DNA of 35,947 nucleotides from Coleofasciculaceae cyanobacterium CTOTU46641 (GTDB lineage Bacteria; Cyanobacteriota; Cyanobacteriia; Cyanobacteriales; Coleofasciculaceae). Under the pieces are notes generated by a model that was given only the letters and a program-made list of their open reading frames with translations, did no database searches and was not told where the DNA came from. Of this stretch, positions 9,598 to 28,574 are shown piece after piece. The stretch covers positions 1 through 35,947 of the forward strand of contig DALYKF010000031.1 in NCBI GenBank assembly GCA_031969515.1. The letters run 5' to 3'. Numbering within the stretch: position 1 is the stretch's first letter; each line of letters starts with the position of its first letter. The position numbers and the translations under genes were made by a program.

Positions 9598-9846
9598 TTA
9601 GTCAGTCCGCTCCAACCGGATTGTTATGCCGTTTCTTTGCAAATATGGTTGCAATTGCTTACTCTTGCCTATTCCGTTAGCTTGGGCACACTGCCAAACC
9701 ACGCGATCGCTACTATTGACTTCCAACCCTATCTCTTCAAACAGGACAAAGCGAATATAAACTAACTCAAGCCAGCCACTAGCGGCAAGGCTACCTGCTA
9801 AGACAACAGAATGTCCACGTAAATTATGATCAACCAGAACATTCAT
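9598..9846 (-). pseudogene. DUF5615 (Mut7-C/PIN-like toxin) gene, 3'-disrupted
   Basis: MNVLVDHNL...VVWQCAQANG matches the DUF5615 N-terminal half. The last 10 codons are supplied by the dispersed repeat at 9603-9635. Possible remnants of the C-terminus lie in other frames further downstream. It overlaps the DUF433 gene by 4 nt. Confidence 0.5.
9603..9635. repeat. Short dispersed repeat, copy 2
   Basis: See copy 1. The sequence is cagtccgctccaaccggattgttatgccgtttc. Confidence 0.7.
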
Positions 9847-10223
9847 GCCTTTGATTCAAGTTTAGCCCGTTCTGCCCGGAGTTTTGCCCGAATCACTTCC
9901 GTACCTGGTCTAGGGGGTTTTGCAGCAATGTGAGCAACGAGAGCACGATTCTGCTCCTCATAATATTGTCGTAGTTCCTCGGCTTCCTTAAGGACGGCTT
10001 GGTACTCTGCTTCAACCTCGGCACGATGGGCATCAATGTAAGATAGAGCGGAATTAACCTGTTCATCGGTGAGGCTGAGCATGGCACGAATGAACTTTGG
10101 TGGATACTGCTCTGTCACATAGTCCATCACGTCATACAAAGTAATACGGGTTCCTGAAATTGTCAGTCCCCTCTCTGTACGAATGATAGCTGCTTGCCCA
10201 TCAGAATGCGAAGTCATAGCCAT
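9843..10223 (-). CDS. DUF433-domain protein (antitoxin-like partner of DUF5615)
   Basis: 126 aa. ERGLTISGTRITLYDVMDYV is the DUF433 signature. It has a C-terminal coiled-coil tail. Confidence 0.7.
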   Translation of the reverse strand: MAMTSHSDGQAAIIRTERGLTISGTRITLYDVMDYVTEQYPPKFIRAMLSLTDEQVNSALSYIDAHRAEVEAEYQAVLKEAEELRQYYEEQNRALVAHIAAKPPRPGTEVIRAKLRAERAKLESKA

Positions 10224-10445
10224 AACCTTGGAACAGCTAAGTCTATATTACCTCGCCAAAAAACTGATAGGTATGATGTCTACCCACCAGCTTCTAGTTC
10301 CTTTAAAAGTCCTCTAAATACTTGATTTCACGCCTTCTGTTACCAGCAGGGGAAAGTCTTGCCAGTTTCGCTGCTTCAGAGCCATGCGGATTATCTGAAT
10401 AGGCATCCACAACATCAATAGTGCGATCGCTTACACCAGTGAAAA

Positions 10446-10572
10446 CCCAGCCTACGGCGAACTTGCGATAGCGAAGCGCTGCTGCGAAGCGCAGATCGCA
10501 CTGGACAGCACACAAGCGATCGCTCTTCATATTGCTTGTTGGTTGAGAAACTGAGTTACTGCTTCCACTCCC
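10446..10572. repeat. Composite repeat, B-type unit copy B1 (contains HIP1 sites)
   Basis: cctacggcgaacttgcgatagcgaagcgctgctgcgaagcgcagatcgcactggacagcacacaagcgatcgctcttcat...gagaaactgagttactgcttccactc. Related copies are at 11221-11312, 12431-12573 and 13379-13402. Confidence 0.8.
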
Positions 10573-10589
10573 CTCAACAAAAGGGCTTG

Positions 10590-10778
10590 TTAGCTGGCGG
10601 TTGTATTCAGTAGTAACCATTCTACAAATGCCTCCCGCCCTAGCTCCCCCGATGCGATCGCCAACACCACACGCTCTTGTTCATCTACACAGACGTTAAT
10701 TTCCATTCCATTCAGCACAAGAAAAGTCTCTACGGCAGCATGACCTGTACGTTTGTTTCCATCAGAAACCGCATTATG
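10590..10778 (-). pseudogene. Doc/Fic-family (death-on-curing) toxin remnant, C-terminal half only
   Basis: The translation HNAVSDGNKRTGHAAVETFLVLNGMEINVCVDEQERVVLAIASGELGREAFVEW matches the Doc motif region (HxFx[DN]GNKRT...LNG) and the C-terminus. The frame closes with TAG immediately upstream, and the N-terminal approximately 65 aa are missing. Confidence 0.55.
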
Positions 10779-10989
10779 CTAAACACTGATACAATTGAGC
10801 ATTCTTTGTCAACACATAATTAGCTGCTTCAACAAACTCGCTCTTTTGAGAGTTGAGCCAATCCTCCAAGCTTGCCTTCAATAACACTTCGAGTGCAATC
10901 CCATGCACTGTTGCCAAATCTTGTAGCTTTTGGAATTGGGTGTCTGAAAGGTCAAGGGTAATAGAAGCCAAAGCGATCGCTCTCCTCAT
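10774..10989 (-). CDS. Ribbon-helix-helix (CopG/Phd-like) antitoxin
   Basis: 71 aa. The N-terminal ITLDLSDTQFQKLQDLATVHGIALEVLLKASLEDWL is RHH-like. It sits directly 5' of the Doc remnant. Confidence 0.6.
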   Translation of the reverse strand: MRRAIALASITLDLSDTQFQKLQDLATVHGIALEVLLKASLEDWLNSQKSEFVEAANYVLTKNAQLYQCLA

Positions 10990-11090
10990 GTTTCTGGGTT
11001 AAGTCTAGCATCTACCCCCAATTGGCAGCCTCGTTGTGCAGTCCCAACCCAGGAACGAAGCCAGCTAAGAATCTCCTCGCCTAGGGTTTG

Positions 11091-11312
11091 GTGAAAGGAA
11101 ACGATCGCCCTCTCATTTTATCTTGGCAATCACGTCCACGGTCACAGCCGTCCAGTGCGATCGCGCTTCTAGTTAGTACTGCCAAGAAAAGCGATGCTGG
11201 GTTTCCTTTTGTCAACTCAGCCTACGGCGGTAGGCGATTGCCCTGGACGGCACACAAGCGATCGCTCTTCATATCGCTTGTTGGTTGAGAAACTGAGTTA
11301 TCGTTTCCACTG
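11091..11312. repeat. Composite structured repeat A1+B2 (about 220 bp, imperfect terminal inverted repeats GTGGAAACGAT)
   Basis: The A unit (11091-11220) is almost identical to 13249-13378. The B unit (11221-11312) is related to B1/B3. The A and B arms are partly reverse-complementary (gtccagtgcgatc.gcgcttc). Confidence 0.8.
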
Positions 11313-11339
11313 TGTTGTTAGACCGTGCCTCACGGAACA

Positions 11340-11729
11340 CTACCGATTTACCAATCCTTGCAGTTCACTGATGTCGATATCGAGTCCTTGACGCTTCAGA
11401 TATTGATTCAGATTGATCTGGATGAATAAATCTTTGAGTTCTTCTGCAATCTCTGGGGGTGGACTGCCAGATAATGCCGTTGCGATTAGGCGTTCTGCGG
11501 CTCGTAACTCACCACATTCGATCGCGAGAGATGCAGCGCTACGATGAAGGACAGAGCGAGTGGGTTCAGCATCGAGAACACTAGCAATTAAATTGGCAGC
11601 TTGGGTTTCTTGTTCAAAGGCTTGGCGTGTTAACTGTGCCGCCTGTTCGATCGCACCTCTTAAACGGGCAACTGCCGCTGCTTCGGCTAAATCCATTGCT
11701 TGTTGGTGAAGCGTTTGAATCTGGTTCAT
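11340..11729 (-). CDS. Hypothetical alpha-helical protein (129 aa), downstream gene of a two-gene cassette
   Basis: Ala/Gln-rich helical ORF. It overlaps the upstream 189-aa gene by 4 nt. No recognisable motif. Confidence 0.5.
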   Translation of the reverse strand: MNQIQTLHQQAMDLAEAAAVARLRGAIEQAAQLTRQAFEQETQAANLIASVLDAEPTRSVLHRSAASLAIECGELRAAERLIATALSGSPPPEIAEELKDLFIQINLNQYLKRQGLDIDISELQGLVNR

Positions 11730-12295
11730 TGAAGTAAGGCTCCTTCGGGATTCTGTTTTGCGCTAACAACAGAAATTGGGCGGCTGAACTCTACCACAAT
11801 GATATAGGCTGGCAACCCTTCTGCATCAGATGCGCCAGTTTGTTCAGTTTTCTGCTTGACTCTGGCATTGATCTGACTCCGATTCCCCTTGCGAATTCCA
11901 GAAACCTCCAATCGAGCCATACGCTGGAACGGCAGCAGTGTGCTTGAATCTTGGCTCCCCAGCCAGTAGTCAAATCCAGTTCCCTTACGAGAACGTTCAA
12001 TCACCGTCAGATTGGTCAATTGCAGAATTAATAGGAATGCAATGCCATAAGCCGCTTGCTCGGTCGTATATTCGTCATCATTCCAGCATCGCCTTGCTTG
12101 TTCCGTAACGGGCTGCCAATCTAACTGGAACCGAGCGGAAAATTCTCCTTCGACTTCGAGGATTACTCCTGGCTCATGGGTTTCATCCGTTAGACAAATT
12201 GCACCCGCTTCTGCGATCGCGGCTCCAAAAGCGGGCGTGATTGCAGGAAGCCCTTGATTAAGGCGTTGTAAGTTTAAGATTTGATACTGGCTCAA
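11726..12295 (-). CDS. Hypothetical protein (189 aa), upstream gene of the two-gene cassette
   Basis: Intact ORF bracketed by composite repeats. No family recognised by eye. A possible D...E-x-K-like region (GFDYWL...RLEVSGIRKG) is speculative. Confidence 0.5.
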   Translation of the reverse strand: MSQYQILNLQRLNQGLPAITPAFGAAIAEAGAICLTDETHEPGVILEVEGEFSARFQLDWQPVTEQARRCWNDDEYTTEQAAYGIAFLLILQLTNLTVIERSRKGTGFDYWLGSQDSSTLLPFQRMARLEVSGIRKGNRSQINARVKQKTEQTGASDAEGLPAYIIVVEFSRPISVVSAKQNPEGALLQ

Positions 12296-12430
12296 AACGG
12301 TGTTGCCCTATAGAAACTAGAGGCTCAATTTTACTTGCGATCGCTACAGCTTGAGTCGCTGGCAATAATTTTGCCTTGATTGCCTTCTTCGACTTGGGGG
12401 CACGCCTGAAACTCATAAATCTCGTCGCCC

Positions 12431-12573
12431 CAACCTACGGCGAACTTGCGATAGCGAAGCGCTGCTGCGTTCGCCCTTGGCGTTGCCGAAGGCTAGCGCA
12501 GATCGCACTGGACGGCACACAAGCGATCGCTCTTCATATCGCCTACTGGTTGAGAAACTGAGTTACCGCTTCC
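12431..12573. repeat. Composite repeat, B-type unit copy B3
   Basis: Near-identical to B1, with a 25-nt insertion (ttcgcccttggcgttgccgaaggcta). Confidence 0.8.
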
Positions 12574-12609
12574 ACTCTCTTCGACGAGACGACTTGTTAG
12601 CTGACGGCG

Positions 12610-12999
12610 CTACTCCAGACACTGAAATCCCTTTTCCCCCTTCAATTTGCCATCGAAGCTTACGGTTTGTGTGCAACCCGCCTGTCGAGATACCGCCCCA
12701 ATCAAATAGTCAGAGAAATCAGCCTTGCCCTGCTTGTATCGCTGTAGAGCCTGGTCAATCGTTGAGCGGTTTTCAAATTCAAAAGCCGCACTATGCAACA
12801 TGGACTCCAGGACACTGACGATCTCGTCTTTATGAAAGCCATAATTTGCGCCCCTAAGTACCCAAACCAACTCACACAGAACGATATTGGTGATAAAGCA
12901 AGGCTGATTCTGCTGAATGACTGTAACGGCTTGTTGCCATTGCTGCTCATCATCTCTGGTGAGGTATCGAACGAGGATGTTGGTATCAAGTCCAATCAT
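12610..12999 (-). CDS. vapC: PIN-domain toxin (VapC family)
   Basis: MIGLDTNILVRYL is the PIN N-terminal motif. The likely start is the internal Met at 12999; the ORF track extends to 13020. It overlaps the antitoxin gene. Confidence 0.75.
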   Translation of the reverse strand: MIGLDTNILVRYLTRDDEQQWQQAVTVIQQNQPCFITNIVLCELVWVLRGANYGFHKDEIVSVLESMLHSAAFEFENRSTIDQALQRYKQGKADFSDYLIGAVSRQAGCTQTVSFDGKLKGEKGFQCLE

Positions 13000-13231
13000 T
13001 CGCGCCCTCGGAAATGGCAATTTCCATATCCTCGAGGGAAGCTCGTTGAATGTTGGGTCGATGGAGAATGCCGGATAGGGTTTCTACGGCAACATTGAGG
13101 GGAAAAATTTTGACTTGACCTTCGTTGTCAATCACAAACTCGACTCGGCTACCGCTTACCAGCTTGAGATGCTGCCGAATTTCTTCAGGCAGGGTAATTT
13201 GTCCGGTATCGGTAACTGTTGTACTGAGCAT
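12986..13231 (-). CDS. vapB: AbrB/MazE/SpoVT-type antitoxin (VapB)
   Basis: 81 aa. TGQITLPEEIRQHLKLVSGSRVEF is a swapped-hairpin AbrB-type DNA-binding motif. It is immediately 5' of the PIN gene. Confidence 0.7.
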   Translation of the reverse strand: MLSTTVTDTGQITLPEEIRQHLKLVSGSRVEFVIDNEGQVKIFPLNVAVETLSGILHRPNIQRASLEDMEIAISEGANDWT

Positions 13232-13248
13232 AGTTAGGGTGACTGCAA

Positions 13249-13402
13249 GTGAAAGGAAACGATCGCCCTCTCATTTTATCTTGGCAATCACGTCCACGGT
13301 CACAGCCGTCCAGTGCGATCGCGCTTCTAGTTAGTACTGCCAGAGAAAAGCGATGCTGGGTTTCCTGTTGTCAACCCAGCCTACGACGAGCTTGCGATCG
13401 CA
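13249..13402. repeat. Composite repeat A2 plus truncated B unit
   Basis: It matches 11091-11225 with about 4 mismatches over 130 nt, followed by cctacgacgagcttgcgatcgcac. Confidence 0.8.
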
Positions 13403-13486
13403 CTTTTTTTCTAGCGATCGCTTGACAATTAAGACAGTTGCTACAAGATTAAAATCATATTTTTCCTATTACAAGACAGCAAGATT

Positions 13487-13639
13487 AAAATTCCCTTTTG
13501 CCTAGCATTTCTTTTGCAATCTCCTTACATTTTTCATCTAGTGCATCCTCGTACTTAGATCTTAATGATTTTTCCGTAGGAATTTCTTCTAACCGTTTTT
13601 TCAAATCATCTGTTTGTGGCTTATCTGAATTTTGCATTT
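13487..13639 (-). CDS. Small hypothetical ORF (50 aa) downstream of the NACHT cluster
   Basis: Read by hand: MQNSDKPQTDDLKKRLEEIPTEKSLRSKYEDALDEKCKEIAKEMLGKREF. It is below the ORF-track cutoff, lies in an AT-rich region, and is weakly supported. Confidence 0.2.
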
Positions 13640-13693
13640 TTTCTATTTCTCATCTGTCAGTCGCTTATAAGCAAGAGCGTTAGTAAGCTAATT

Positions 13694-14257
13694 TTAAACA
13701 TCAAATCCATACCTCTCTTTCAAAAAAGCTCTTGTTTTTTCGTCAGGACTTTCCCCATAGCAAGAAGCAACAACTTCTCCATAATCTTCTAAATCAATTG
13801 ACTCAGTTGAATTTAATGCTTGTAGGAATCTTTGTTCAGCAGAAGGATGGATGAGGACAAAATAATATGCCCAACGTCCAGTACTGTCTTTAGCTTTAAG
13901 CTTATGAATTAAATGACCTCGACTTGCAATATGCCGATTAAGATAAGTATCGCCATCAGATGAGGTCGTGCTGTTTCCTTGATTCTTTTCCTGCTCCCAT
14001 TGTTCTAGTTGTAGGAGTGCATGATTGACTGCATCTCGAACCTGATTATTCTCATGCTCCTTCATATTTTCAAGAATTTTCTTCCCTTCAAGGTTTTCCA
14101 CTCCTGCCAATGTATAGGCATAGGCATCAAGGTCAATTTGTTCCCCCTTGCCAAGATTAAGCTGATCCCGAAGAGCATTCACATCTCCCATCCCAACTAA
14201 GGCGAGGAGACAACGGGCGTGCAAGTCATAACCACTGATGTTCTTCTTTGCCATCAT
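13694..14257 (-). CDS. Hypothetical protein with N-terminal HEAT-like repeat, co-transcribed with the NACHT gene
   Basis: 187 aa. It overlaps the NACHT gene stop by 4 nt. The N-terminus resembles a PBS-lyase HEAT repeat (ALVGMGDVNALRDQL...VRDAVNHALLQL). The C-terminal domain is unknown. Confidence 0.55.
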   Translation of the reverse strand: MMAKKNISGYDLHARCLLALVGMGDVNALRDQLNLGKGEQIDLDAYAYTLAGVENLEGKKILENMKEHENNQVRDAVNHALLQLEQWEQEKNQGNSTTSSDGDTYLNRHIASRGHLIHKLKAKDSTGRWAYYFVLIHPSAEQRFLQALNSTESIDLEDYGEVVASCYGESPDEKTRAFLKERYGFDV

Positions 14258-17004
14258 TCATCTCCTTTGCTATTGATTGAAGTGTTTATGATTTGTGTTA
14301 AGGATGATATGACTTGTTCGCCTCCGATCAATGTTAAATAGACCAAAGCTTCATCTCGATCTTCATTGGTTAGCAAATCATCCTGAAAGGCTTTTAGCAG
14401 TGGTTCTATCATTTCGGGGACAAAACAGCCTAATCGACCCATTGCGATCGCGACTAATTGCTTAGGGCTTTCCGGGATATCTGAAGTAATGAGAGATTGT
14501 AGAACTTGAGTATCCTGCGGACGGTGAATCGGCGTAATCAGGGGTAAATCTTTGTGGGGCTTTCTTCCATCTGCAACAGTTGCCCACTGCCTAATCCAGT
14601 CATCAACTTGATTAAAGACAAGCGTTTCAGTTCCACAAACACTCAAAATCAAAGCCGCCCACGTTCGAGAATAGGCATCGCGCCTATCATCTGTTACAAT
14701 TTGCCGTAAGACCTCAAGTTCTTCTTCATTAAAGCGGTAAGCTGTATAGGTGTGGCATGTCTTGGCGCTTGTTAACCATCCCAAAGCCCACAGCACTGCA
14801 AATGAAATAGCCTCATGTTCGCCGCTCTCCTTTGCGGTTTCCAACAATAAGCCTACAGTTTTTGGCAAGAGAGAATCGGGGAGGAAGTCAATCCTGATGT
14901 TAGAGTTCAGTACTTGGGTTCGATAGAATGCGTTCATTAGTTTAAGTGCTGCATCAGCACGGATTTTGATCGAGTTATTATCCTGTAACTTTGTCAAAAG
15001 AGGCTCCAATATCTCGAATGCATTATCCGCGTTAAGCACGTCACCGCTTGTCGTTGCCATCGAGTAAACAGCCCCGATCCTGCTCCGGCGGTTGCCACAG
15101 TATTTTACAAAGCTTTGCAACATCCGTTTTCGGCATCGTTCTGCAAAGCAAGAGCGCATGAGAGAGTACAGAACTTCATCCATGAGTGTGTTCTGTTTTG
15201 TGTTGAACCCATCCAATCTGTTTAGATTATCTGTAGCTGCATCGATGACGGCATCAACGGTTTCACCACTCACATCGGGTTCTTCGACTAGGGTTTGTAG
15301 CGCAAAGATGGATAAAGCACGAGCTTCCCTTTCAGCAGTGAGAGGCGAAGGGAGTAGCATTAACATTGCATCATCAGCAGTGATACCACTTTTTCCGAAT
15401 TTACCGTCTTTTCGACGAGGTAAGGAACCAATACAAAAGCGAATGACTTCCTGCCAATAACCGGCAGTTACAGGTTCTGTTTTTGTTACAAGTCCCCAAA
15501 AATCGACTTTTCTCTCTGCAATTTCAATCTCATGCACTAGCTGGTGCAAGCGCTGTAGAACTTCTACCCCTTCAGAGAAAATACGACCATTCAGTAATGC
15601 CTGGGCTGCAAAATACTCCTGGAACGATTGATGAAAAAATTGGACTTCATCGCAATCCATTTGGTCTCGTATACTAGTTCCTGCAATGGTTAGCAACCCA
15701 ATCTGGCTGAGAACTAAGTCATACCATTCTTCAGGAGAATACCGCTGTATTCTGCTTGTTGCTTTGTTGGCATAAAACTCTTCGATCGCTTCAATCACCT
15801 GTGACTCTTGCCAGTGTTGAGCACCATCCAAGCGCATCTGGTAAGCAAGGTATTCCAGGTGAGGCAGGATTTCATTATTGGGTTTGCTGACATAGCGGTC
15901 GTCCGAAATAGGACGACGTTTAATCATCAAGTCTACTGCTCGACGATAGAAATCTCCCCTCCGATCACGTGGCGAAATACTGTCTTGGAGCGCTAATTGA
16001 GTGATGAGAGTGAGGGGAAATACGTTTTCGCATAGGGTGGCTACTCTGCGGTCACTACAAACAAAAGATTCGAGAGCATTGGATAGAGATGCCTTTCCTA
16101 GAAATTTTGCAAAGTTCTGAGCAAATTCTTTCTTCTCAGAGCCTCTCAGAGGCGCTACATTAATGTGCTTGAAGGAACGCAGTGAGTCTGCGATAGTATT
16201 GAATCCAAAAACTCTAGAGGTGAGAACGATCGGGATTGGTTCATGGATGTTCGCAATCAGTTGAGCAAGCTGCCGTCGTTTCCGACTGGATGGAATTTCA
16301 TCCAGTCCATCGACTAGAAGTAAAACCTGTCCTTCTGACATTTTCTGTTCGAGCAGATCTGTCAGTAAGCGACGAGGCTCATTAGCGTGATAACCCAACT
16401 TTTGTAGTTGATACTCGATTAAATGGCTCAAACTGCACTCAAAGTCAGTGGCTAGCAGATCGCGACAGAATAGAACCACAGGTATCCAAGATTGATCCGG
16501 TAATGCCGCTTGATTTTCAGAGATTCTAGTCGAATCCTCTGTATGCAAAGGTGACAATGGATGCTTATCGAAATAACTATAAGCCAGAAAACGTAGAAGA
16601 GTTGTCTTACCACAACCCGGATCTCCCACGATTACTAATCGGGCTTCTGACGCTAACTGACTACTGATTTTGCAAACGGTTGGCTCTGGTTGTTGCAAGA
16701 GGTGCCGGATCGGCGATCTATCAAAACGCAAGGCACTCGTAAAGCTATCGCGGAATTGCTGATGAACTTGTTCTACATCAGTTGATTCAAGTTGAAAAAT
16801 TTGGCGCAGTGTAGATTGCTCAACCCGTTGGACATTGGTGGTGCTATTCCTGGCTGATGGGTTGTCTTGTTCAACATCTGTTTCAAGAAGAACGGAATCA
16901 GGGCGAGGATCGTAAGTCAGCAGCAATGGTAAATCGATGTATAGATCTTCGATCGGGAAATCGGCTGATCCAACTTGCTGTTGAATCAACAGTCCAACCT
17001 CCAT
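14254..17004 (-). CDS. NACHT-family STAND NTPase with C-terminal HEAT/ARM-like repeats
   Basis: 916 aa. Walker A is LVIVGDPGCGKTTLL. Walker B is VLLLVDGLDEI. An approximately 130-aa N-terminal region of unknown function precedes the NTPase. The C-terminal region is a long helical repeat. Confidence 0.8.
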   Translation of the reverse strand: MEVGLLIQQQVGSADFPIEDLYIDLPLLLTYDPRPDSVLLETDVEQDNPSARNSTTNVQRVEQSTLRQIFQLESTDVEQVHQQFRDSFTSALRFDRSPIRHLLQQPEPTVCKISSQLASEARLVIVGDPGCGKTTLLRFLAYSYFDKHPLSPLHTEDSTRISENQAALPDQSWIPVVLFCRDLLATDFECSLSHLIEYQLQKLGYHANEPRRLLTDLLEQKMSEGQVLLLVDGLDEIPSSRKRRQLAQLIANIHEPIPIVLTSRVFGFNTIADSLRSFKHINVAPLRGSEKKEFAQNFAKFLGKASLSNALESFVCSDRRVATLCENVFPLTLITQLALQDSISPRDRRGDFYRRAVDLMIKRRPISDDRYVSKPNNEILPHLEYLAYQMRLDGAQHWQESQVIEAIEEFYANKATSRIQRYSPEEWYDLVLSQIGLLTIAGTSIRDQMDCDEVQFFHQSFQEYFAAQALLNGRIFSEGVEVLQRLHQLVHEIEIAERKVDFWGLVTKTEPVTAGYWQEVIRFCIGSLPRRKDGKFGKSGITADDAMLMLLPSPLTAEREARALSIFALQTLVEEPDVSGETVDAVIDAATDNLNRLDGFNTKQNTLMDEVLYSLMRSCFAERCRKRMLQSFVKYCGNRRSRIGAVYSMATTSGDVLNADNAFEILEPLLTKLQDNNSIKIRADAALKLMNAFYRTQVLNSNIRIDFLPDSLLPKTVGLLLETAKESGEHEAISFAVLWALGWLTSAKTCHTYTAYRFNEEELEVLRQIVTDDRRDAYSRTWAALILSVCGTETLVFNQVDDWIRQWATVADGRKPHKDLPLITPIHRPQDTQVLQSLITSDIPESPKQLVAIAMGRLGCFVPEMIEPLLKAFQDDLLTNEDRDEALVYLTLIGGEQVISSLTQIINTSINSKGDE

Positions 17005-17094
17005 CCGCGAATAGCGGTCAGCTTCTTGCTTTAAATATCTGACTAATGCCTGTTGGGTTCTTTCCTTTATCCGTTCCCGTCCGGACGACTCCAG

Positions 17095-17553
17095 TCAATC
17101 TTCAGGCTGAGCACCAAAGTAAAACTTGGCATTTGAACCCGTCTGAATCACCTGAGATTTGGGATCATTCACCTGCAAACCCTGTCCAGTAAAAATTTGC
17201 TGCACATTTCTAGCATTTACCTCATCAAACCGGACTAGGACTTGATAAATCTCTTGCGCTATTGGTTGCACCATGCTGACGAATTCAGGATTCTCCATTT
17301 CCTTGAGCAGATAATCCTGGATTTGTTTAAGTTCTGGTTCAGATCCTTTTGCAGCAGCCTCTAAAACCTTATCGGCTCGTGGTTTTCCTTTGAAACACCA
17401 ATTCCACACCACCTGTCCCAACTTCTGAATTTGTGCAGAGGCTGCTTCTACAAGCTTTTCACCTAATTTGCTGCCTGCACCTTCATAAAGTTTGTCCAAA
17501 ATGATTTTGGCGATTGGGGCTGCTAAGACTGGAGTGATAATTGGATCAAGCAT
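17095..17553 (-). CDS. Hypothetical helical protein (152 aa) immediately upstream of the NACHT gene
   Basis: Intact ORF 90 nt upstream of the NACHT gene on the same strand. No motif recognised. Confidence 0.5.
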   Translation of the reverse strand: MLDPIITPVLAAPIAKIILDKLYEGAGSKLGEKLVEAASAQIQKLGQVVWNWCFKGKPRADKVLEAAAKGSEPELKQIQDYLLKEMENPEFVSMVQPIAQEIYQVLVRFDEVNARNVQQIFTGQGLQVNDPKSQVIQTGSNAKFYFGAQPED

Positions 17554-17702
17554 ACGGTTTAAGGAATAGAGGTCACGTTATCTGTTCTACACTATTGCTG
17601 TCGCAACATCCATTGTCTTGCTAATCGTCTCATCTAAACTTGTGCTTTTGAATACCAAAAGACGAATTTTCAGCTACACCCTACCGGGACATGAAGCAAC
17701 AT

Positions 17703-17769
17703 AACTATTATTAGACAGAAACTTTCCGCCTAAGATCCCATAGTGGGTGGATAGGCAGAATGATTCAGC
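17703..17769. repeat. 67-bp direct repeat, left copy, bounding the PanA islet
   Basis: aactattattagacagaaactttccgcctaagatcccatagtgggtggataggcagaatgattcagc. It matches 19422-19488 with about 7 mismatches. Confidence 0.8.
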
Positions 17770-17879
17770 ATAACACCCAAAATTTAATACTTATGCAGAT
17801 TATTTCTGCAAAATACGCTGCTCAAGCTGAATAACCAGAATCTTTCCGCATATTTTCAGATTCCTTACGGAGGTGAGAG

Positions 17880-18120
17880 GGGCAGGTTTCTGCTTCGACA
17901 CAAAATCAAGCCCTCAGTGCCTTGCTATTTCTCTATCGTGAAGTACTCAATCTTAACATGGCAGGCATTGATGCTGTTCGAGCCAAAGGACCTCAGTCTG
18001 TGCCAACCGTGTTGACCAAATAGGAAGCGATCGCAGTAATCCAACAGTATGTCATTGGTCGTGCGGTTCTACAAATTTATCCTCTTACGCACTTTCAGGG
18101 TCTGTTTTGATGGTGAAGTT
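17880..18120 (+). pseudogene. Possible degraded tyrosine recombinase/integrase fragment
   Basis: The translation ALSALLFLYREVLNLNMAGIDAVRAKGPQSVPTVLTK*EAIAVIQQY loosely fits the integrase patch LLY.TGLR.SEL..L...D.D.....V.R.KG.K.R.VPL. It has an in-frame stop and is weakly supported. Confidence 0.25.
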
Positions 18121-18164
18121 GAGCGGCTGTAAGCAAGCTCTGTATCTACACCAAGAGCTTTTAG

Positions 18165-18188
18165 AAGTCCGCTCCAACCGAATTGTTA
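18165..18188. repeat. Short dispersed repeat, copy 3 (agtccgctccaaccgaattgttag)
   Basis: It shares its core with copies at 7552 and 9603. Confidence 0.6.
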
Positions 18189-18264
18189 GACAGAGTAATT
18201 TAAAGCATCTTATGAAAGAATAAAATCTATAAATGGAGCGAAACGTATTGAATGAGACTTACAC

Positions 18265-18879
18265 TCAAGGTACTGGATATATTTTGTGATACCTTTCCCA
18301 CCAAACCAAATAAAAATGCCCTTGTAGCTTTATACCCCAAGCTCTGATGGTATTAGCAAATCTAAACCGAAAAGCCGTATCGTATTCTTCTAAACCGATT
18401 TCGATCCACCTATCCTGAGCTTCTTGCACCAAAGTAGTTAGCTCTTGATGGTGATGCTTAGGTACAGTTTTACCACCCTTAGCAGGTGTTTTTTGCTCAA
18501 ATAAGATTTCAGACCAAGTTGATTTTTCCAACAAACTAAAATTTGGAAGTATTTGGGTTTGCCATTCTTCCTCAGTCCAACATCTTTGTTCTCGCCATGA
18601 CCACTCTCCTTCCAAGTCAGACACAGTAGTACACCAAGTCAAGTTACAAGTTATTGCAAATGATTCTTCGCTAGGAAGATATAAAGACTTATTTTTACTT
18701 GGCTCTTCCTGAACCTTAACGACCTTCAAGGAAAGTTCAGGTATTGGCGCTATTTTCACAGTTTTGGTTACCAAATTTTCCACGCTAGACGAAAATCTTA
18801 CCGACTTTGCCTTGCGTGCCTGAGCTTTTTCTTCTTGCCTTTGCTTCCTTCTCTCAGCTTTGGAAGGTTTATCCGTCAT
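18265..18879 (-). CDS. Hypothetical protein (204 aa), candidate toxin partner of the Panacea-domain antitoxin
   Basis: Overlaps the upstream PanA-like gene by 4 nt. It has a basic N-terminus (KAERRKQRQEEKAQARKAK) and a Trp-rich C-terminal domain. No known family recognised. Confidence 0.55.
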   Translation of the reverse strand: MTDKPSKAERRKQRQEEKAQARKAKSVRFSSSVENLVTKTVKIAPIPELSLKVVKVQEEPSKNKSLYLPSEESFAITCNLTWCTTVSDLEGEWSWREQRCWTEEEWQTQILPNFSLLEKSTWSEILFEQKTPAKGGKTVPKHHHQELTTLVQEAQDRWIEIGLEEYDTAFRFRFANTIRAWGIKLQGHFYLVWWERYHKIYPVP

Positions 18880-19310
18880 AGGCTCGAATAATATTCATGC
18901 ATTGCAGCTAAGGGGATAACCTTATCACACCTCTCTGTAGGTTTCAGGTCGCCTCTAGCGTCTTTCCAAGGAGACTCCATATGAGTTAACTCACTTAACC
19001 ACTGCCCACTCTTGTCTTGGAGTGCCTCTAGAACTTTGTCAATAGAGTCTTGTTGATTGGGGGTTAAAGCATCAATGTCCCCATCAGCAAAGGTATCTTT
19101 ATTAACCTTAAATTGATCTCGATGATACCCATACAGAATAGGTACTACAGGACCATTCGCCCAAGCCTGAATATCTTCGTCAAACAAGGGGCTTTCATCC
19201 CAAACAAGAGACCAAGCTTGACTGTAATAAACAAGCTTTTGAAGCTTCATCGCAGTCATTTCGCCTGTTTTAGTTAGGATATATTTCGCCACATCCACAG
19301 CACGTGCCAT
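18876..19310 (-). CDS. Panacea-domain (DUF4065, PanA/SocA-like) antitoxin
   Basis: 144 aa. KLQKLVYYSQAWSLVWDESPLFDEDIQAWANGPVVPILYGYH matches the DUF4065 core (LQKLLYfaqgw...lf.e.feAW.hGPVvp.vY). Confidence 0.75.
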   Translation of the reverse strand: MARAVDVAKYILTKTGEMTAMKLQKLVYYSQAWSLVWDESPLFDEDIQAWANGPVVPILYGYHRDQFKVNKDTFADGDIDALTPNQQDSIDKVLEALQDKSGQWLSELTHMESPWKDARGDLKPTERCDKVIPLAAMHEYYSSL

Positions 19311-19421
19311 GTTGTCCCCCTTGTAGCTTTTAGCGAGCTAATAAACAATTATAGCATACTAGATCGTTTGTACTGCAATGCTGAGTGGATTATGGTTGCT
19401 GCTCAAAACCTTGCTCTGTTT

Positions 19422-19488
19422 AACTATTATTAGACTGAAAATTTCCCCCTAAGATCCAATAGTGGGTGGATATGCAGAACAATTCAGC
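19422..19488. repeat. 67-bp direct repeat, right copy
   Basis: aactattattagactgaaaatttccccctaagatccaatagtgggtggatatgcagaacaattcagc. It lies immediately 3' of the major vault protein gene stop. Confidence 0.8.
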
Positions 19489-19498
19489 CCTCCATAAA

Positions 19499-22198
19499 TT
19501 AAGCCAGAGGACGATCGCTTTTCGGCAATGGCTGTGTTTCTGCTCCCATCGGACTAATCAACCCCTGCGCTGTATTAAACAGATTAATCGGATTTCTGCC
19601 ATCAGTAATCAACACACTTTGAATACCCAGCGCTTGCAAAAGTCTAGCCTGCATTTCTGGACCAGCTTGAGCCATAGCTTTGAGCGTTTCAGAGCCAATT
19701 GCTTCTACTTTTTGTCTAAATTCAGCGCTAGTAATTTCTGCCATCCGCTGCGCTTTTTCAATATCCAAATTATTCAACGCTTGTTGATGCGCTAACTCAG
19801 CTTCCTGTCTTGCTCTTAATTGAGCTAATTCTACGTCCGAGCGAATCCTTGCCGCCTCAGCTTCTTGCTGTGCCAAATTCACCGTTAATTGACCTTGAAT
19901 TCTCGCTGCTTCTGCCTTAGCCCTGGCTTCTGCTGTTGCTTGCCCCGTAGATTCAATGGCGGCATTTTCAGCTTCTAATTCCAACAAATTCTTGCGCTCT
20001 GCTTCCGCTGCACTTTTATCAACAATTGCCTGCCGTTCTAGTCTCGCTTTGGCTTCTTGTTCAATCCGTTCAGCATCATGTCTAGCCGCTGCTTCTTGAG
20101 CATCTGTTGTAATTTGTATAGCAATCTGTACCGACTTTTGGAGACTCTTTAATGTCTCTTCATCTACGGGTTCAACGGATTGGATATCAACATTAAAAAT
20201 CACTAAGTTATTCGTCCTAAAACGCAATTCATCCCGTACATGACCTTCTGCATCTATTCCAAACACAGCCGTGCGAATAATGTGAGCCGAATTGCGATGA
20301 AATTCATCAAATTTTACACCCGCTACCGCACCTCGCACACGGGAAGCGATCGCTTTACAAGCCGTATCTACAAAATCCGGAACTTGAAACAGCTTGGCTG
20401 CTGCTTGTTCATCATGTCGATCCACATCAAAATACCAATTGTAGGATAAACGTAACTGCAATCTGGCATGATCTGAGGTTTCCACCGTGAAAAGATCCGT
20501 CATAAAATCTGGCCCTAATAACAAGGCTAAGGATTTGATAATATGAGGACGTTTAGGTACACTACCCGATAAACTTAACACCGTAAACGCTTCATCTGGC
20601 CCTAACATTACTAAGTCGGGACCGAATACAGTTCTGGCTGTTCTTTCCTTGTAATCATGGATTTGTACAGCGGCATTTTGTGGCACATGAAAGACAACCG
20701 CCCGACTTTTATCTCGTGCAGATGCGGTCTGATCTAGAGTGGATGACTCTGAGATTTCAGTTGAGCGATCGCTCCCTTTACTTTTGCTAACATGATACCG
20801 ACCCCGCTCAGAAACTGGGTCATTTTTGATCGCTAATAATTCTTCAACAATCGGGGGTAATTCTTTTTCCCAAAGCTCTTCATAGGGACTGAGCATATAA
20901 GCTTGGGGACCACTCACAACTTTCAGTTCACCCGTCTGAATATCACGCACATAAATCCCTTCATTTTTATCCAAAGGAATCGCTTGACGTTTTTCAATCA
21001 CTTCCACTTCTACACGGGGAATATAATCTCTGGGGCCAGCAATCATCCACATATCACCTGGGTACCGTTGGATTAAATTATCCCCTTCCCCTTCCCTAAA
21101 ACCTTCTTTCGCTTTGAGCAAAAGTGATTCTTGTTCGCCCAAAACATAAATGTTTTGAATGCCATTTTCCAGGGATTCACCGGGATGCAAGAAAAATGAA
21201 AGTCTGCCTTGGCGAACCTCTCGCATTCCTAACTGAGGTTTGCCCTCTTCATCAATGGGGTTGACAACAATACACCATTCTCTATCTCCTAATGTGGTAA
21301 TTTCTACTTCTCCAACCACCTCTTCATAGACATCAGGAATATGAATTTCGGCATCGGCAAACGTGACTAACCATTCATCACCCGCTTTACGTTGCCGACT
21401 AAAAATATCTGTAAAAGTGCGTTTTGCTCGCAAATGTAAGGCTTTTTTCTCGGTTAAAACGTAAGCCTTAATAATCCCAATTGCTTCCTCATCTACCCCA
21501 GGCAAATAGGCTCCTTCTTCCCTTACTAACCACTCTTCACCCGCTCTACGTCTATTCCCTTGGCGATCGGTACAATTTTGTCGCGCTAATAATCGTAACG
21601 CTTGATTCGGCTTAATTACGGTTGCCGTGACTACTTTGATCACTTCAACTTCAATTCGGGGACGATAAGTTCCTGGTCCTTCAAATAGCCACTCATCCCC
21701 TGCTAAACGGTTGATTGGTTCTGATTGAGTTGCGACTTCATCCGTGACTAAAATCGAATCGGAAAAATCTCTCAATGCTCTTAAACGTAGTGCTTGATTT
21801 CTCTCAACGACTGTCAGTTGGGTAATCTCTCCCTGAACGTCTTCACCAGGATAGAGTGGAAACGGTTCTTGGGCAAAGCGAATTTCAGCATCGCCGTATC
21901 TGAGTTTAATTTGTCCATATTCATCTGTAATCGGATTACCATTTTGATCTCGAAGTACAGGATTAGCAATCACACAATAATAGCGAGGTGGCACTACTAT
22001 CATGGGTTCAGGTTTTAATATTAGCCGCTCATGGTCACGTAGAGTAATGGTTTGAGGGCCAATTTCTAGCCGGGTCACACCTGTATTATTATCTAGAACG
22101 TGAATAAACTGCTGAGGTTTGAGGCGAATTACGCCTGTAGAACTTCCGGCGACTTCCGTTTTACTGTCAGTTTTTCGCTCAGTTGTATTCATTTCCAT
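19499..22198 (-). CDS. Major vault protein (MVP) homologue
   Basis: 899 aa, collinear with eukaryotic MVP. The N-terminal repeat [31 protein letters not shown] and motifs [26 protein letters not shown] and [16 protein letters not shown] are present. The SPFH-like shoulder and the C-terminal coiled coil with GPEMQ...[11 protein letters not shown] are also present. Confidence 0.85.
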
Positions 22199-22382
22199 TG
22201 TCTAATATGGGATTGCCAAAATTGTTTTCGCTCGGTATGGAGAAGTCGTTATTATTCCCGCTTTCGCTGTTGGAAGGAGCAGAAATCTCCTCACCTGGCA
22301 CTATTGGCTCGATTTTAACCCCACTTGATTAAGCTGCTCTAAATTGTAATGAATCTACAATCTAAAGGGGTAGAATGTAGCT

Positions 22383-23657
22383 TTAGAAATTAATGGCTTC
22401 ATTTGGACCCACTAAAGATATATAAGGTTCAGAAAAGTATTGATTAGCAACGGCTTGAGCGATTTCTGGAGTAACATTAGTAACGTCCTCCTGAAACTGG
22501 GTATCAAACTCAATCCCTAACCCCAGCGTCTCATACCAACCGTAGATTTGAGCAAGTTGAGCATTCGTTTGTTTCCCTAAAGCATACTGACCTAAAAGCT
22601 TATTCGTTGAAGTCTGAAGTTCATCAATACTCAGAGAAGACGTACAAAGGCGTTCAACTTCTGCACGTAGACCCTCTAGCGCTATGGTTGTATTTTCCGG
22701 TGCCGTACCCATATAGACCACGAACGTAGATGCCGACTGACGCGTCGGATAAAATGCAGAAACGTCATAGGCTAACCCTCGTTTTTCCCGCAGTTCCACA
22801 AACAAGCGACTGGAAAGACCATTTCCTAAGTAAGTATTGAGTAATTTTAAGGCAGCATAGTTCGGATCTTTGACGGCTGAAGCGAGATAGCCTAGCATAA
22901 CAATAGATTGCTGAGTTTCTTGAGGTGTAATAACTCGGCTAGGTTGAGATTTAATCAACGGTAAAACGGGTTGATTTACAGGTGTTTGAGGCGCTTGCCA
23001 ATCCCAAAATACGCTCGTAATCTGCTCGATCGCTTCCGCTGGAGTAACGCGACCTGCAACACTAATGACTAGGTTATCAGGACGGAAATAGGTTTGATGA
23101 TAGTCCTCTAGATCACTCCGCAATAACTTAGCGATCGCTGCTTCAGTTCCTAAAATTGAGAGACCATAGGGATGGTCTTGATACATTGCCTGTCGTAACT
23201 GCTCAAAGGCAATATTAAACGGTTGCTCTTTTTGAGAACGAATGTCTTGAATGGTTAAATGTCGTTCGAGTTCTACTTCAGTTTCTGGAAAACTCGGATA
23301 TCGCAACATCTGCCCTGCTAACTCTAACATTTCAGGCCAGTCTGTAGAAACAGTCTTGAGTGAGAGCAAAAAGTAATCCGTAGCTGTATCCGCACTAAGT
23401 TGAGCGCCAACTGACTCAACTCGTTCAGCAATTTCAATGGATGATAACTTCTGTGTTCCTTTCGTTAGTACGGCTGAAAGTAAGTGAGAAAGTCCAGCTT
23501 TTTCGCGGGATTCCCACTGACTCCCTGCTCGAATAAATAGACGAGTCGCAATAATATCTGCGGCTGAATTTTCTATAGCAATTACCACAATACCATTATC
23601 TAAAACCGTGCGGTGGATAATTTGCTGTTGTTCCGGAGCGGTCACATTTTGAGGCAT
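22383..23657 (-). CDS. M16-family peptidase, non-catalytic (beta-like) subunit
   Basis: 424 aa with the M16 fold, but the zinc motif position reads GLSHLLSAVLTKGT (no HxxEH). Confidence 0.75.
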   Translation of the reverse strand: MPQNVTAPEQQQIIHRTVLDNGIVVIAIENSAADIIATRLFIRAGSQWESREKAGLSHLLSAVLTKGTQKLSSIEIAERVESVGAQLSADTATDYFLLSLKTVSTDWPEMLELAGQMLRYPSFPETEVELERHLTIQDIRSQKEQPFNIAFEQLRQAMYQDHPYGLSILGTEAAIAKLLRSDLEDYHQTYFRPDNLVISVAGRVTPAEAIEQITSVFWDWQAPQTPVNQPVLPLIKSQPSRVITPQETQQSIVMLGYLASAVKDPNYAALKLLNTYLGNGLSSRLFVELREKRGLAYDVSAFYPTRQSASTFVVYMGTAPENTTIALEGLRAEVERLCTSSLSIDELQTSTNKLLGQYALGKQTNAQLAQIYGWYETLGLGIEFDTQFQEDVTNVTPEIAQAVANQYFSEPYISLVGPNEAINF

Positions 23658-24005
23658 TTTTGTTGTTGGTTGTTAGTTGTTAGTTGTTAGTTGTTAGTTG
23701 TTGGTTGTTGGTTGTTAGTTGTTAGTTGTTAGTTGTTAGTTGTTAGTTGTTGGTTGTTGGTGATTTGTTTTTAACCAATTTACCCAATTACTAACACTCC
23801 CACCCCCACTCCCCACTCCCCACTCCCCATTTGGTTGTTAGTTATTATATTATTTTCTAAATGCCTGCTACACATTAATCGCCGCGTCTTCGACTCTCCG
23901 CGTCATCAGCATCTATAGCGAACATAAATAAAATTAGTATTAGTCGAACACCAAACAGCAAACAACAAACAACCAACAACCAACAACCAACAACCAACAA
24001 CAAAA
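23658..24005. repeat. STRR heptamer array with a large inverted-repeat organisation between the two M16 genes
   Basis: (A/G)GTTGTT units occur about 14 times at 23660-23760. CCCCACT repeats occur at about 23800-23835. AACAACC/CAACAAC units occur at 23950-24003 and are the reverse complement of the first block. Confidence 0.8.
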
Positions 24006-25301
24006 TTACCAATTTCCCATAATGGGTTTGAGGACAGTAACAGCGTAATGATAGGGAGAAAGATATTGCTGCGCTAAGTGCATTAAGTCTTCTGGAGTTC
24101 GCTTTTGAATCTGTTGCGGGTAAGTAACAGCGAGTTCTGCTGTCGCAATCGTGTTGTAGTATCCATACAAACCTGCAAGCTGACTGGCAGCTTCAGTGGA
24201 AAAGATGTAGTCATTACAGAGTAGGCGTTGACAGCGACTGAGTTCTGCTTGAGAGAGGGGTGTTTGTTGCAATTCCAGAAGGCGATCGCAAATTAGGGTT
24301 TCAACGTGTTCGAGGTGTTGGGGGTCTAGGTATGCACTAATTGTAAATAAACTGGAATCCCGTTGCAGAGAGAAACCACTACTAATCCCTTGAACTAATC
24401 GTTGTTCTTCTCGTAATTCTCGGACTAAGCGAGAGGATCGTCCATCGGCTAATAATACCGAGAGTAAGTCTAAACCATAAGCATCTGCCAAGCGATCAAC
24501 TCCAGGTCCAATCCAAGCCATTAACAGACGTGCTTGTTCGATTCGGGGTAAATATAATTCCTGACGACGAATTTCTGTAATCGGGGGTTCAGCGTCTGGA
24601 GTCACATTTGGACAATCACCGGGTTTACAGAAGTCTTGAAAGGACTGTTGGACTAACTCTAATGCTGATGCTTGTTCTATTCCCCCGACAATGACAACGG
24701 TCATATTTTCGGGTTGATAGTAGGTAGAATGGAAGCTACGCATTTGCTGGGGCGATCGCGTCATTAATTGCTGTTCTGTTCCCAGTACCGAGCGTCCGTA
24801 GGGGTGATGCTGGTAAACATTCTCGGAAAGTGCCTGAAACCCTAGCCAATCCGGATTATCATAACAAGAGCGAATTTCTTCTAAGATGACATCCCGTTCC
24901 CGAACAAATTCGTCGTCGGGAATAGTGGCGTGTAAGAGCAAATCGGCTAGAGGGGGTAGGGTATCATCTAAGTATTGAGCAGCAGTCGTAATAAAGAAAT
25001 GAGCATAGTCATGACTCGTTGCTGCATTGGTGAGTCCGCCACGACGTTCAATGATCGAGTCGAATACACCAGGAGCAAGTGTAGCAGTCCCTTTAAAGAT
25101 CATATGTTCCAGGAAATGTGCCATCCCAGTCCATGGGGAAGGTTCTCTGATCGCACCCGCACGCACCCAAACATCGACCACAACCGCTGGAGTTGCAGGT
25201 AGATATTGGTGAATAACCGTCAACCCATTCGCAAGTCGAACGATCTCAGCAGGAAATGTAGCAGTAGTCAGCGGCTCAGACAGCAATTTTTCTAATCTCA
25301 A
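24006..25301 (-). CDS. M16-family zinc peptidase, catalytic subunit (pitrilysin-like)
   Basis: 431 aa. The inverted zinc-binding motif HFLEHMIFKGT (HxxEH) is present. Confidence 0.8.
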   Translation of the reverse strand: MRLEKLLSEPLTTATFPAEIVRLANGLTVIHQYLPATPAVVVDVWVRAGAIREPSPWTGMAHFLEHMIFKGTATLAPGVFDSIIERRGGLTNAATSHDYAHFFITTAAQYLDDTLPPLADLLLHATIPDDEFVRERDVILEEIRSCYDNPDWLGFQALSENVYQHHPYGRSVLGTEQQLMTRSPQQMRSFHSTYYQPENMTVVIVGGIEQASALELVQQSFQDFCKPGDCPNVTPDAEPPITEIRRQELYLPRIEQARLLMAWIGPGVDRLADAYGLDLLSVLLADGRSSRLVRELREEQRLVQGISSGFSLQRDSSLFTISAYLDPQHLEHVETLICDRLLELQQTPLSQAELSRCQRLLCNDYIFSTEAASQLAGLYGYYNTIATAELAVTYPQQIQKRTPEDLMHLAQQYLSPYHYAVTVLKPIMGNW

Positions 25302-27599: not shown

Positions 27600-27768
27600 G
27601 TTTTAATGGGGAGTGGGGAGTGGGGAGTGGGGAGTGGGGAGGGGGAGAGAGGGGGAAGACGAAGGGGGACGTGGAGACAAATAACCAACAACTAACAACC
27701 AACAACTAACAACTAACAACTAATAACTAACAACTAAAAACCAACAACCAACAACCAACAACAGACAG
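27600..27768. repeat. STRR heptamer block (GGGGAGT then AACAACT/AACAACC units) ending at the regulator start codon
   Basis: ggggagtggggagtggggagtgggga, then ccaacaactaacaaccaacaactaacaa, then ccaacaaccaacaacagacag ATG. Confidence 0.8.
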
Positions 27769-28449: not shown

Positions 28450-28574
28450 GAGGGGAGTTAGGGGGAGTGGGGAAGAGAATTAAGTGTACCTCACCTATTT
28501 GAGAAATGCTATATATTGGTTATTAGTTATTTACAAACAACAAACAACCAACAACAAGCAACAAGCAACAAACC

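Follow-up and report, generated by a model that had tools for sequence, protein, structure and literature searches.

A major vault protein orthologue in a Coleofasciculaceae cyanobacterium and the case for its assembly into a vault-like cage

Does a cyanobacterium encode a genuine major vault protein (MVP), and could such a protein build a cage without the other components of the eukaryotic vault? The question is raised by contig DALYKF010000031.1 of the Coleofasciculaceae cyanobacterium CTOTU46641, the 35,947 nucleotides of which we analyzed as a whole and refer to as the window. An earlier reading, made from the letters of the window alone (the sequence-only reading), had picked out one gene as a full-length homologue of eukaryotic MVP. 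The eukaryotic vault is a hollow barrel of 78 MVP subunits (2 × 39), and eukaryotic MVP self-assembles into the vault shell alone, without a partner. To our knowledge, the function of the vault has remained unresolved for about 40 years. Vaults are still mostly described as absent from prokaryotes, for example in PMC9778704. We found that the gene in the window is almost certainly a functional bacterial MVP orthologue. We give the whole explanation, in which it is a stand-alone gene whose product also assembles into cages, a probability of about 0.6.

Identity of the gene product

The sequence-only reading had described the 899-amino-acid product as collinear with eukaryotic MVP, and we found that it is. 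The open reading frame (ORF) runs exactly from ATG to stop on the minus strand (Table 1). When the protein was compared with PDB sequences by phmmer, residues 21 to 893 matched rabbit MVP residues 5 to 860 in one continuous alignment (E = 1.4e-298), and residues 23 to 893 matched human MVP residues 7 to 860 in one stretch (E = 3.3e-298); rat MVP likewise aligned without interruption. Identity to human MVP was 57.1% (481 of 843 aligned columns). The three motifs quoted in that reading were all present, with 12 of 12, 8 of 12, and 11 of 14 residues identical to those of the human protein. The match to MVP is far beyond chance.

The domain content agreed with the alignments. All five Pfam MVP families scored far over their gathering cutoffs: Vault in four stretches (E = 8e-65), Vault_2 in two stretches, Vault_3, Vault_4, and MVP_shoulder (PF11978), which was covered from position 1 to 118 of 118 (E = 1.6e-52). 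An NCBIfam search of the protein gave no match. With the R1-to-R9 boundaries of the rat structure, the shoulder was the most conserved domain (67% identical to human residues 520 to 646), followed by R9 (63%) and the other domains (45 to 57%). The cap helix was 51% identical to human residues 647 to 802, and the cap ring was 53% identical to residues 803 to 860. The cap-ring motif LITDGxxPINLF is kept from bacteria to human, the cap-ring segment has many invariant columns over 30 bacterial sequences, and the R1 segment is highly conserved between bacteria and human.

Compared with eukaryotic MVP (human, rat, and rabbit; PDB 4V60, 4HL8, 9BW5, and 9Z4W), the window MVP is thus collinear over its full length with all domains present, and the differences from vertebrate MVP are local. 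Insertions lengthen R3 by about 11 residues and the R8/R9 loop by about 15, and one loop of the shoulder is about 10 residues shorter. The R8/R9 loop lies in a Ser/Thr-rich segment that forms a variable "x" stretch in the family consensus. A 22-residue polar extension precedes R1, and its composition is like that of the family consensus MNTTERxxExKxExPGxSSG.

To obtain a predicted structure, we used an alignment of 46 sequences that included eukaryotic homologues. The resulting AlphaFold2 (AF2) model had a mean predicted local distance difference test score (pLDDT) of 81.6; an earlier model from a shallow alignment, in which all sequences were at least 75% identical, reached 49.6 and was discarded. 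The model shows beta-rich repeats at residues 23 to 562, an alpha/beta shoulder, a continuous helix at residues 680 to 834, and short cap-ring helices. The shoulder and the cap helix, both claimed by the sequence-only reading, were therefore confirmed by Pfam and by the models, respectively. Disorder was seen only at the first 19 residues, in the loop at residues 470 to 490 (pLDDT < 50), and in the C-terminal tail. When the model was searched against the PDB with Foldseek, the top 12 matches were all MVP chains (E = 1e-64 to 1e-86; 809 to 866 columns; 49 to 54% identity), and crystal fragments of R1 to R7 gave TM scores of 0.60 to 0.62.

We rejected an SPFH/band-7 membrane scaffold as the identity of the protein. 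Like MVP, the SPFH/band-7 cage proteins (HflK/C, flotillin, prohibitin, stomatin, and erlin) have a shoulder and a long helix, and both types belong to families of multimeric cages, although for the window MVP the cage is predicted. In contrast to MVP, SPFH/band-7 proteins lack the nine N-terminal repeats and are membrane anchored. The window MVP has all nine repeats, its five Pfam matches at E ≤ 0.01 do not include Band_7, and it has no membrane segment (maximum Kyte-Doolittle 19-residue mean, 1.17); the relation is one of fold only.

The finding is real but already known. Daly et al. in 2013 (PMC3762200) described cyanobacterial MVPs in silico and named those of Lyngbya/Moorena, Oscillatoria acuminata, and Microcoleus PCC 7113, and such proteins were discussed again in 2019 (Sokolskyi, bioRxiv 10.1101/872010) and 2023 (Santos et al., bioRxiv 10.1101/2023.11.10.566534). 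The published proteins are F4Y3B4 of Moorena (Lyngbya) producens 3L, K9TKX8 of O. acuminata, and K9WB38 of Allocoleopsis (Microcoleus) PCC 7113, and JGI already annotates cyanobacterial orthologues as "major vault protein." The window MVP is 80% identical to the proteins of M. producens 3L (L061) and Allocoleopsis franciscana (P0043). It shares with the published proteins their length class, their Pfam architecture, and the lack of a conserved partner gene; it comes from another species and another genomic position, and only an upstream palindrome and a variable 3′ islet are specific to its subclade. The novelty implied by the sequence-only reading was therefore overstated. The window adds one more orthologue and no new kind of thing. 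The present analysis adds that the gene stands alone in the ameliorated backbone without a conserved partner, that the residues of a nucleotide pocket are essentially invariant across 130 bacterial copies, and that Nostocales, Prochloron, Thiotrichaceae, and Chloroflexota carry the cyanobacterial type of MVP as well. Among cyanobacteria, the papers on bacterial MVP (PMC3762200; bioRxiv 10.1101/2023.11.10.566534) name only Oscillatoriales, and they do not mention Thiotrichaceae or Chloroflexota. We regard the interest of the locus as moderate: the locus itself is not new, and the biological question beneath it is open and testable.

Proposed cage assembly and the shoulder pocket

According to the mechanism that we propose, about 39 monomers would bundle via the cap helices into each half-shell, and two half-shells would meet at the N-terminal R1 waist, so that the product would be a hollow cage in the cytoplasm, about 70 by 40 nm in size. 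The cage would take NAD+, ADP-ribose, or ADP in its shoulder pockets and would hold cargo without TEP1, PARP4, or vault RNA. By analogy with the eukaryotic particle, closed vault-like cages probably form in vivo. As for their role, our best guess is that they serve large filamentous cells for sequestration or storage.

Cage assembly is the likeliest mechanism because all the modules are retained and because the parts that would form the pole and the waist are constrained. In eukaryotic vaults, the cap ring lies at the pole and R1 lies at the waist, where the N termini face the lumen in the rat structure. The conservation of the cap ring and of R1 therefore argues for retained assembly. Assembly on eukaryotic polyribosomes cannot apply here, because the host is prokaryotic. 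Human MVP expressed alone in Escherichia coli forms vault-like particles of 70 to 80 nm (PMC9778704), so self-assembly in a bacterial cytoplasm is feasible.

Lodwick et al. in 2025 (PMC12280208) described a pocket for NAD+, ADP, and ADP-ribose between adjacent shoulders of human MVP. We compared its residues (R437, R504, K506, R507, P508, H509, R511, L517, D521, F522, W545, P565, and K573 in the human numbering) with those of the window MVP and found that 11 of the 13 are identical; the shoulder domain contains most of the pocket residues. Six (K506, D521, F522, W545, P565, and K573) were invariant in all 130 aligned bacterial sequences, and R437 was kept in 127 of them. Judged by its residues, the human-type intersubunit adenine-dinucleotide pocket is nearly intact. 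Actual binding of adenine dinucleotides by the window MVP is a tentative prediction, to which we give somewhat less than even odds. Only one of the four residues that contact PARP4-MINT was kept, as expected for a vertebrate-specific partner.

Several observations weigh against the proposed explanation. First, the monomer model misses the in-cage geometry (global TM, 0.36 to 0.42; root mean square deviation, >78 Å). The score is low because the prediction, made for a single elongated monomer, lacks the curvature that the chain would have in the cage; the model thus speaks for the fold and is silent on assembly. Second, the 22-residue N-terminal tail may change how the two halves pair, and several waist contacts of the rat structure differ in the window MVP (I36T and R37L). 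Third, of the three basic "keyhole loop" residues in the human pocket, R504 and R511 are replaced (R504V and R511I); position 511 is also Ile, Leu, or Val in the aligned nonvertebrate eukaryotes. Fourth, the gene is fragmented in a close relative, Floridaenema evergladense (L067), and appears dispensable in some lineages on that ground. Fifth, the particles made from human MVP in E. coli are abnormal in shape and are accompanied by a species of about 20 nm (PMC9778704), and bacterial translation may not reproduce polyribosome-templated assembly. Finally, we found no particle, transcript, or protein of any bacterial MVP, and no experimental study of one, in the searchable literature.

The fragmented copy of F. 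evergladense (L067:9983-11439), which is 89% identical, is split into ORFs of 79 and 398 amino acids; about 900 nucleotides (nt) are lost internally, and the 3′ end is gone. It is an apparent pseudogene, with an assembly artifact as the alternative.

Some of the same observations would fit a different assembly: a protein that has the MVP fold and yields, in place of closed two-half vaults, open half-domes or some other oligomer, perhaps attached to a membrane or thylakoid in the manner of SPFH cages. The shoulder and helix region is the part held in common with HflK/C, flotillin, prohibitin, and stomatin, and SPFH cage proteins were the next Foldseek class after MVP (E of about 1e-6; 11 to 19% identity). 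The extra tail and some changed contacts lie in the waist region; the non-native shape of the E. coli-made particles (PMC9778704) points the same way, and a 2026 report (PMC13100048) describes eukaryotic vaults as membrane associated in situ. We nevertheless consider open assembly unlikely. All nine repeats, R1 included, are kept under strong purifying selection, and a dome-only scaffold would need none of them. In addition, the window MVP has no transmembrane or hydrophobic anchor, and its D55 and R58 preserve the waist residues D39 and R42 of the rat structure.

A bacterial MVP that lacks the minor components and keeps the pocket would be a minimal system in which to ask what the shell does and where the vault came from, and such a system has been at hand since the in silico reports of 2013 and 2019. 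That filamentous cyanobacteria, giant sulfur bacteria, and filamentous Chloroflexota all build true MVP-only vault cages that bind NAD+ or ADP-ribose without TEP1, PARP4, or vault RNA is a possibility that we consider less likely than not. If bacterial MVP-only cages do exist, the vault would be a bacterial nanocompartment swapped between phyla, and these hosts would offer a genetically accessible minimal system for the core function of the vault and for the direction of transfer between bacteria and eukaryotes.

Genomic setting of the gene

The gene content of the window is bacterial: it includes the glyS beta subunit gene, mfd, a 1,514-amino-acid hybrid histidine kinase, an OmpR-type regulator, RNase H, two M16 peptidases, and pentapeptide proteins. 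We place the MVP gene on the chromosome of a filamentous cyanobacterium, most likely one similar to Aerosakkonemataceae. The two M16 genes lie upstream of the MVP gene on the same strand. GC content is uniform at about 0.43, and GC content at third codon positions (GC3) is 0.327 for the MVP gene compared with 0.336 for M16a, 0.356 for glyS, and 0.353 for the hybrid kinase. Against eight relatives, the ratio of nonsynonymous to synonymous substitutions (dN/dS) for MVP was 0.044 to 0.086, with dS up to 2. We concluded that strong purifying selection acts on the gene, that its composition is native, and that it is a stable, ameliorated backbone gene and no recent arrival.

TABLE 1 Coordinates of the MVP gene, its parts, its upstream region, and the 3′ islet in the window
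Feature	Coordinates	Strand	Basis
Complete MVP coding sequence (899 amino acids + stop)	19499..22198	-	ATG-to-stop ORF, Pfam, PDB alignment, AF2, Foldseek
Polar N-terminal extension, residues 1-22	22133..22198	-	Alignment; pLDDT <50 at residues 1-19
Nine beta-rich repeat domains R1-R9, residues 23-562	20513..22132	-	Pfam; 45-63% identical to human per domain
Ser/Thr-rich loop, residues 466-495	20714..20803	-	Gap in human/rabbit alignments; about 15 residues longer than human; predicted disordered
SPFH-like shoulder domain, residues 563-678	20165..20512	-	PF11978; 67% identical to human
Cap helix of about 155 residues, residues 679-834	19697..20164	-	DSSP helix 680-834 in both AF2 models
Cap-ring segment and short disordered tail, residues 835-899 + stop	19499..19696	-	53% identity to human
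184-bp noncoding region upstream of MVP	22199..22382	-	Conserved blocks, 8-sequence alignment
Box resembling a -10 element	22312-22317	-	Invariant GGTTA(A/G)AAT
Palindrome upstream of MVP	22345-22359	-	TGTAG-N5-TTACA
Second copy of the palindrome pattern, inside glyS	627-641
RNase H	8697-9338
Mosaic toxin-antitoxin/defense islet, between RNase H and MVP	9358-19488
DUF433 protein	9843-10223
PIN toxin	12610-13020
187-amino-acid ORF and 916-amino-acid NACHT-HEAT STAND NTPase	13694-17004		Translationally coupled, 4-bp overlap
NACHT-HEAT protein alone	14254-17004
152-amino-acid ORF, in islet between NACHT block and SocA pair
204-amino-acid partner of SocA/Panacea	18265-18879		No Pfam match
SocA/Panacea antitoxin	18876-19310

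The sequence-only reading had placed the gene in an accessory region next to mobile and defense-like modules and had taken this as a sign of horizontal acquisition. On such a view, the gene would be recently acquired cargo of the adjacent island, and the flank beyond its 3′ end is indeed a mosaic of SocA/Panacea and PIN toxin-antitoxin pairs together with the NACHT-HEAT NTPase (Table 1). In a 98%-identical relative (L074) this flank is swapped: XisH/XisI, an integrase fragment, and MazE/PIN take the place of the window's SocA pair and NACHT block. In relatives that are at most 94% identical, both flanks are entirely different. However, the M16 and MVP genes of L074 are collinear with those of the window at 96% nucleotide identity, with RNase H as the far anchor, and the islet alone varies. 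The MVP gene therefore lies at the edge of an islet of cassette turnover and is not part of it. Its GC and GC3 are native, its dN/dS is 0.04 to 0.09, no transposase or intact integrase adjoins it in the window, and no PADLOC model matches it. We also found no MVP on 72,556 plasmids and none in IMG/VR viral contigs, and the only phage matches were partial and 23% identical, in two records. Recent capture as island cargo is thus very improbable, and the argument from the neighborhood is a weak one.

The gene instead looks like an autonomous transcription unit, because similarity upstream travels with it: in relatives with different flanks, DNA similarity still reaches about 160 bp upstream of the MVP ATG. 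This region holds an invariant box that resembles a -10 element and, 161 nt upstream of the ATG, the palindrome TGTAGATTCATTACA. The palindrome, like the box, precedes the MVP gene in 12 of 67 loci, mostly those of the closest relatives of the window, and the 5-nt spacer of the palindrome varies; the palindrome pattern occurs twice in the window compared with 0.1 expected. Its spacing is one base shorter than that of the NtcA consensus, TGTA-N8-TACA. The upstream region is likely a putative promoter of the MVP gene's own, followed by a leader of about 105 nt. A scan for the sigma-70 consensus found no promoter on the MVP strand upstream of the ATG, and no terminator was found downstream.

No gene is a conserved partner of MVP. 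Across 73 species-level loci, neither tblastn with 23 window proteins nor clustering of 1,426 flanking ORFs revealed one. The neighbors that recurred were response regulators or kinases (16 loci) and pentapeptide repeats (7 loci), and we judged this recurrence compatible with chance in cyanobacterial genomes.

The other vault components were likewise missing from the window, as the sequence-only reading had stated for TEP1, VPARP (PARP4), and vault RNA. The scanned window ORFs (most of the ORFs of at least 100 amino acids) contained no TROVE, PARP, vWA, DUF4062, or WD40 domain, and no vault RNA or Y RNA was found in the window at the Rfam gathering score or at E ≤ 1. The sole Rfam match at E ≤ 1, MIR2630 (36.6 bits compared with a gathering score of 144), is a hairpin of heptamer repeats, and we rejected it. 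We examined the NACHT protein because TEP1 has a DUF4062-NACHT-WD40 architecture; a recent study (bioRxiv 10.64898/2026.05.01.722283) described TEP1 as a vault-enclosed NADase with TIR-like (DUF4062), NACHT, and WD40 parts. The NACHT NTPase lies 2.5 kb from the MVP gene and has NACHT and HEAT only, with no TIR/DUF4062, TROVE, or WD40, and tblastn found it at none of the other MVP loci among the 73; we rejected it as a link to TEP1. A role in defense was also rejected: no PADLOC model matched MVP or its immediate neighbors, and the NACHT protein gave only weak P-loop matches.

Heptanucleotide tandem repeats occur at 23645-24010, 4805-4841, 27607-27647, 27683-27762, and 28533-28573. They are mostly intergenic; the array at 4805-4841 falls within the ORF of the hybrid kinase. 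In the DNA that separates the M16 genes from each other, 14 copies of GTTGTTA and 8 copies of AACAACA make up 64-nt arms with 84% complementarity and a distance of 230 nt, and these gave rise to the MIR2630 match. The heptanucleotide repeats resemble the STRR repeats of filamentous cyanobacteria.

Distribution and ancestry

Bacterial MVP had been called rare and patchily distributed; the rarity holds only in relative terms. A word-indexed search returned 2,575 homologues; the best 120 clusters were all at least 74% identical to the window MVP, and those with a named taxon were almost all cyanobacterial. An exhaustive search gave 479 clusters (50% identity level) at E ≤ 1e-30. We found MVP at 73 species-level genome loci, mostly of filamentous cyanobacteria, many of which have orthologues that are 74 to 98% identical. 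The closest named relatives, F. evergladense (89%), [Phormidium] sp. LEGE 05292 (84%), and Aerosakkonema (83%), are in or near the family Aerosakkonemataceae; one 90% match labeled Actinomycetota was taken as a misbinned metagenome-assembled genome. The loci include Oscillatoriales-type genera, Nostocales (Calothrix NIES-2100, Nostoc T09, Aulosira, and Richelia), Xenococcaceae, Spirulina, and Prochloron. MVPs that are 65 to 72% identical occur in Thiotrichaceae (Thiomargarita and Parabeggiatoa; L041, L047, L052, and L070) and in Chloroflexota (Anaerolineae, Chloroflexaceae, Oscillochloris, and Thermoflexales; L043, L044, L048, L058, L065, and L072). Nearly all carriers of the cyanobacterial type are filamentous, gliding, or giant-celled.

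We built a neighbor-joining tree with Kimura distances and no outgroup. The MVPs of cyanobacteria, Thiotrichaceae, and Chloroflexota formed one cluster with 100% bootstrap support, and the mean distance within the bacterial cluster was 0.35 compared with 1.24 among eukaryotes. A cluster that is this tight and spans several phyla requires transfer among bacterial phyla. The phylogenetic distribution and the fully supported cluster support horizontal transfer that is old, not recent, so this part of the claim made by the sequence-only reading stands. Because the tree lacks an outgroup, we infer no direction of transfer between bacteria and eukaryotes. Published trees differ on this point: cyanobacterial MVP is nested within Amoebozoa in one (Daly 2013, PMC3762200) and is basal to the eukaryotic cluster in another (Santos 2023, bioRxiv 10.1101/2023.11.10.566534).

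Two further identities can be set aside. Most cyanobacterial orthologues carry an NCBI product name for a TolA-like "colicin uptake" envelope protein, and their Ala/Glu/Lys/Gln-rich cap helix does resemble TolA domain II at the level of low complexity (Daly 2013, PMC3762200; Sokolskyi 2019, bioRxiv 10.1101/872010). We attribute the name to a low-complexity artifact because the window MVP has no membrane segment with which to anchor itself. No TolA family was among its Pfam matches at E ≤ 0.01, NCBIfam gave no match, and the alignment with solved MVP spans the whole protein at 57% identity, so a TolA-like identity has almost no probability. Eukaryotic contamination or a chimeric assembly might be suspected from the fact that the window MVP is closer to human MVP (56%) than are the MVPs of sponge (50%), Anaeramoeba (48%), and Trypanosoma (40%), but it too is close to excluded by an intronless ORF with bacterial genes on both sides and uniform composition, by more than 70 independent bacterial loci that include near-complete chromosomes (orthologues lie on contigs of 6 to 10 Mb, e.g., Calothrix NIES-2100, 9.9 Mb, and A. 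franciscana, 7.47 Mb), and by the single bacterial cluster with 100% bootstrap support.

Outside this cluster, proteins become much more divergent. The MVP-like proteins of Myxococcota and Bacteroidota (Corallococcus, Plesiocystis, Saprospira, and Microscilla) have an MVP-like fold and a shoulder and come from gliding or filamentous hosts. They are about 16% identical to the cyanobacterial type and about 25% identical to eukaryotic MVP (PMC3762200), and they form a separate clade that is far more divergent than the cyanobacterial type. One divergent bacterial MVP, P0137 (874 amino acids; 44% identical), joined the bacterial cluster of our tree at 62% support, and four other deep metagenomic representatives were eukaryotic by their neighbors (actin, importin, FUT8, and malectin genes).

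P0137, encoded at L078:3169-6859, is the only bacterial MVP that we found outside the tight cluster; its gene follows a gene for a CHAT (caspase-like) protease at a distance of 53 bp, and a hybrid histidine kinase gene is nearby. P0170 is a fusion protein of 2,562 amino acids with a full MVP-like region at residues 893 to 1816 (38% identity). Two 735-kb uncultured phages (LR756501.1 and LR756503.1) carry an MVP-like segment at 17332-18840 that matches residues 353 to 854 of the window MVP, 56% of its length, at 23% identity.

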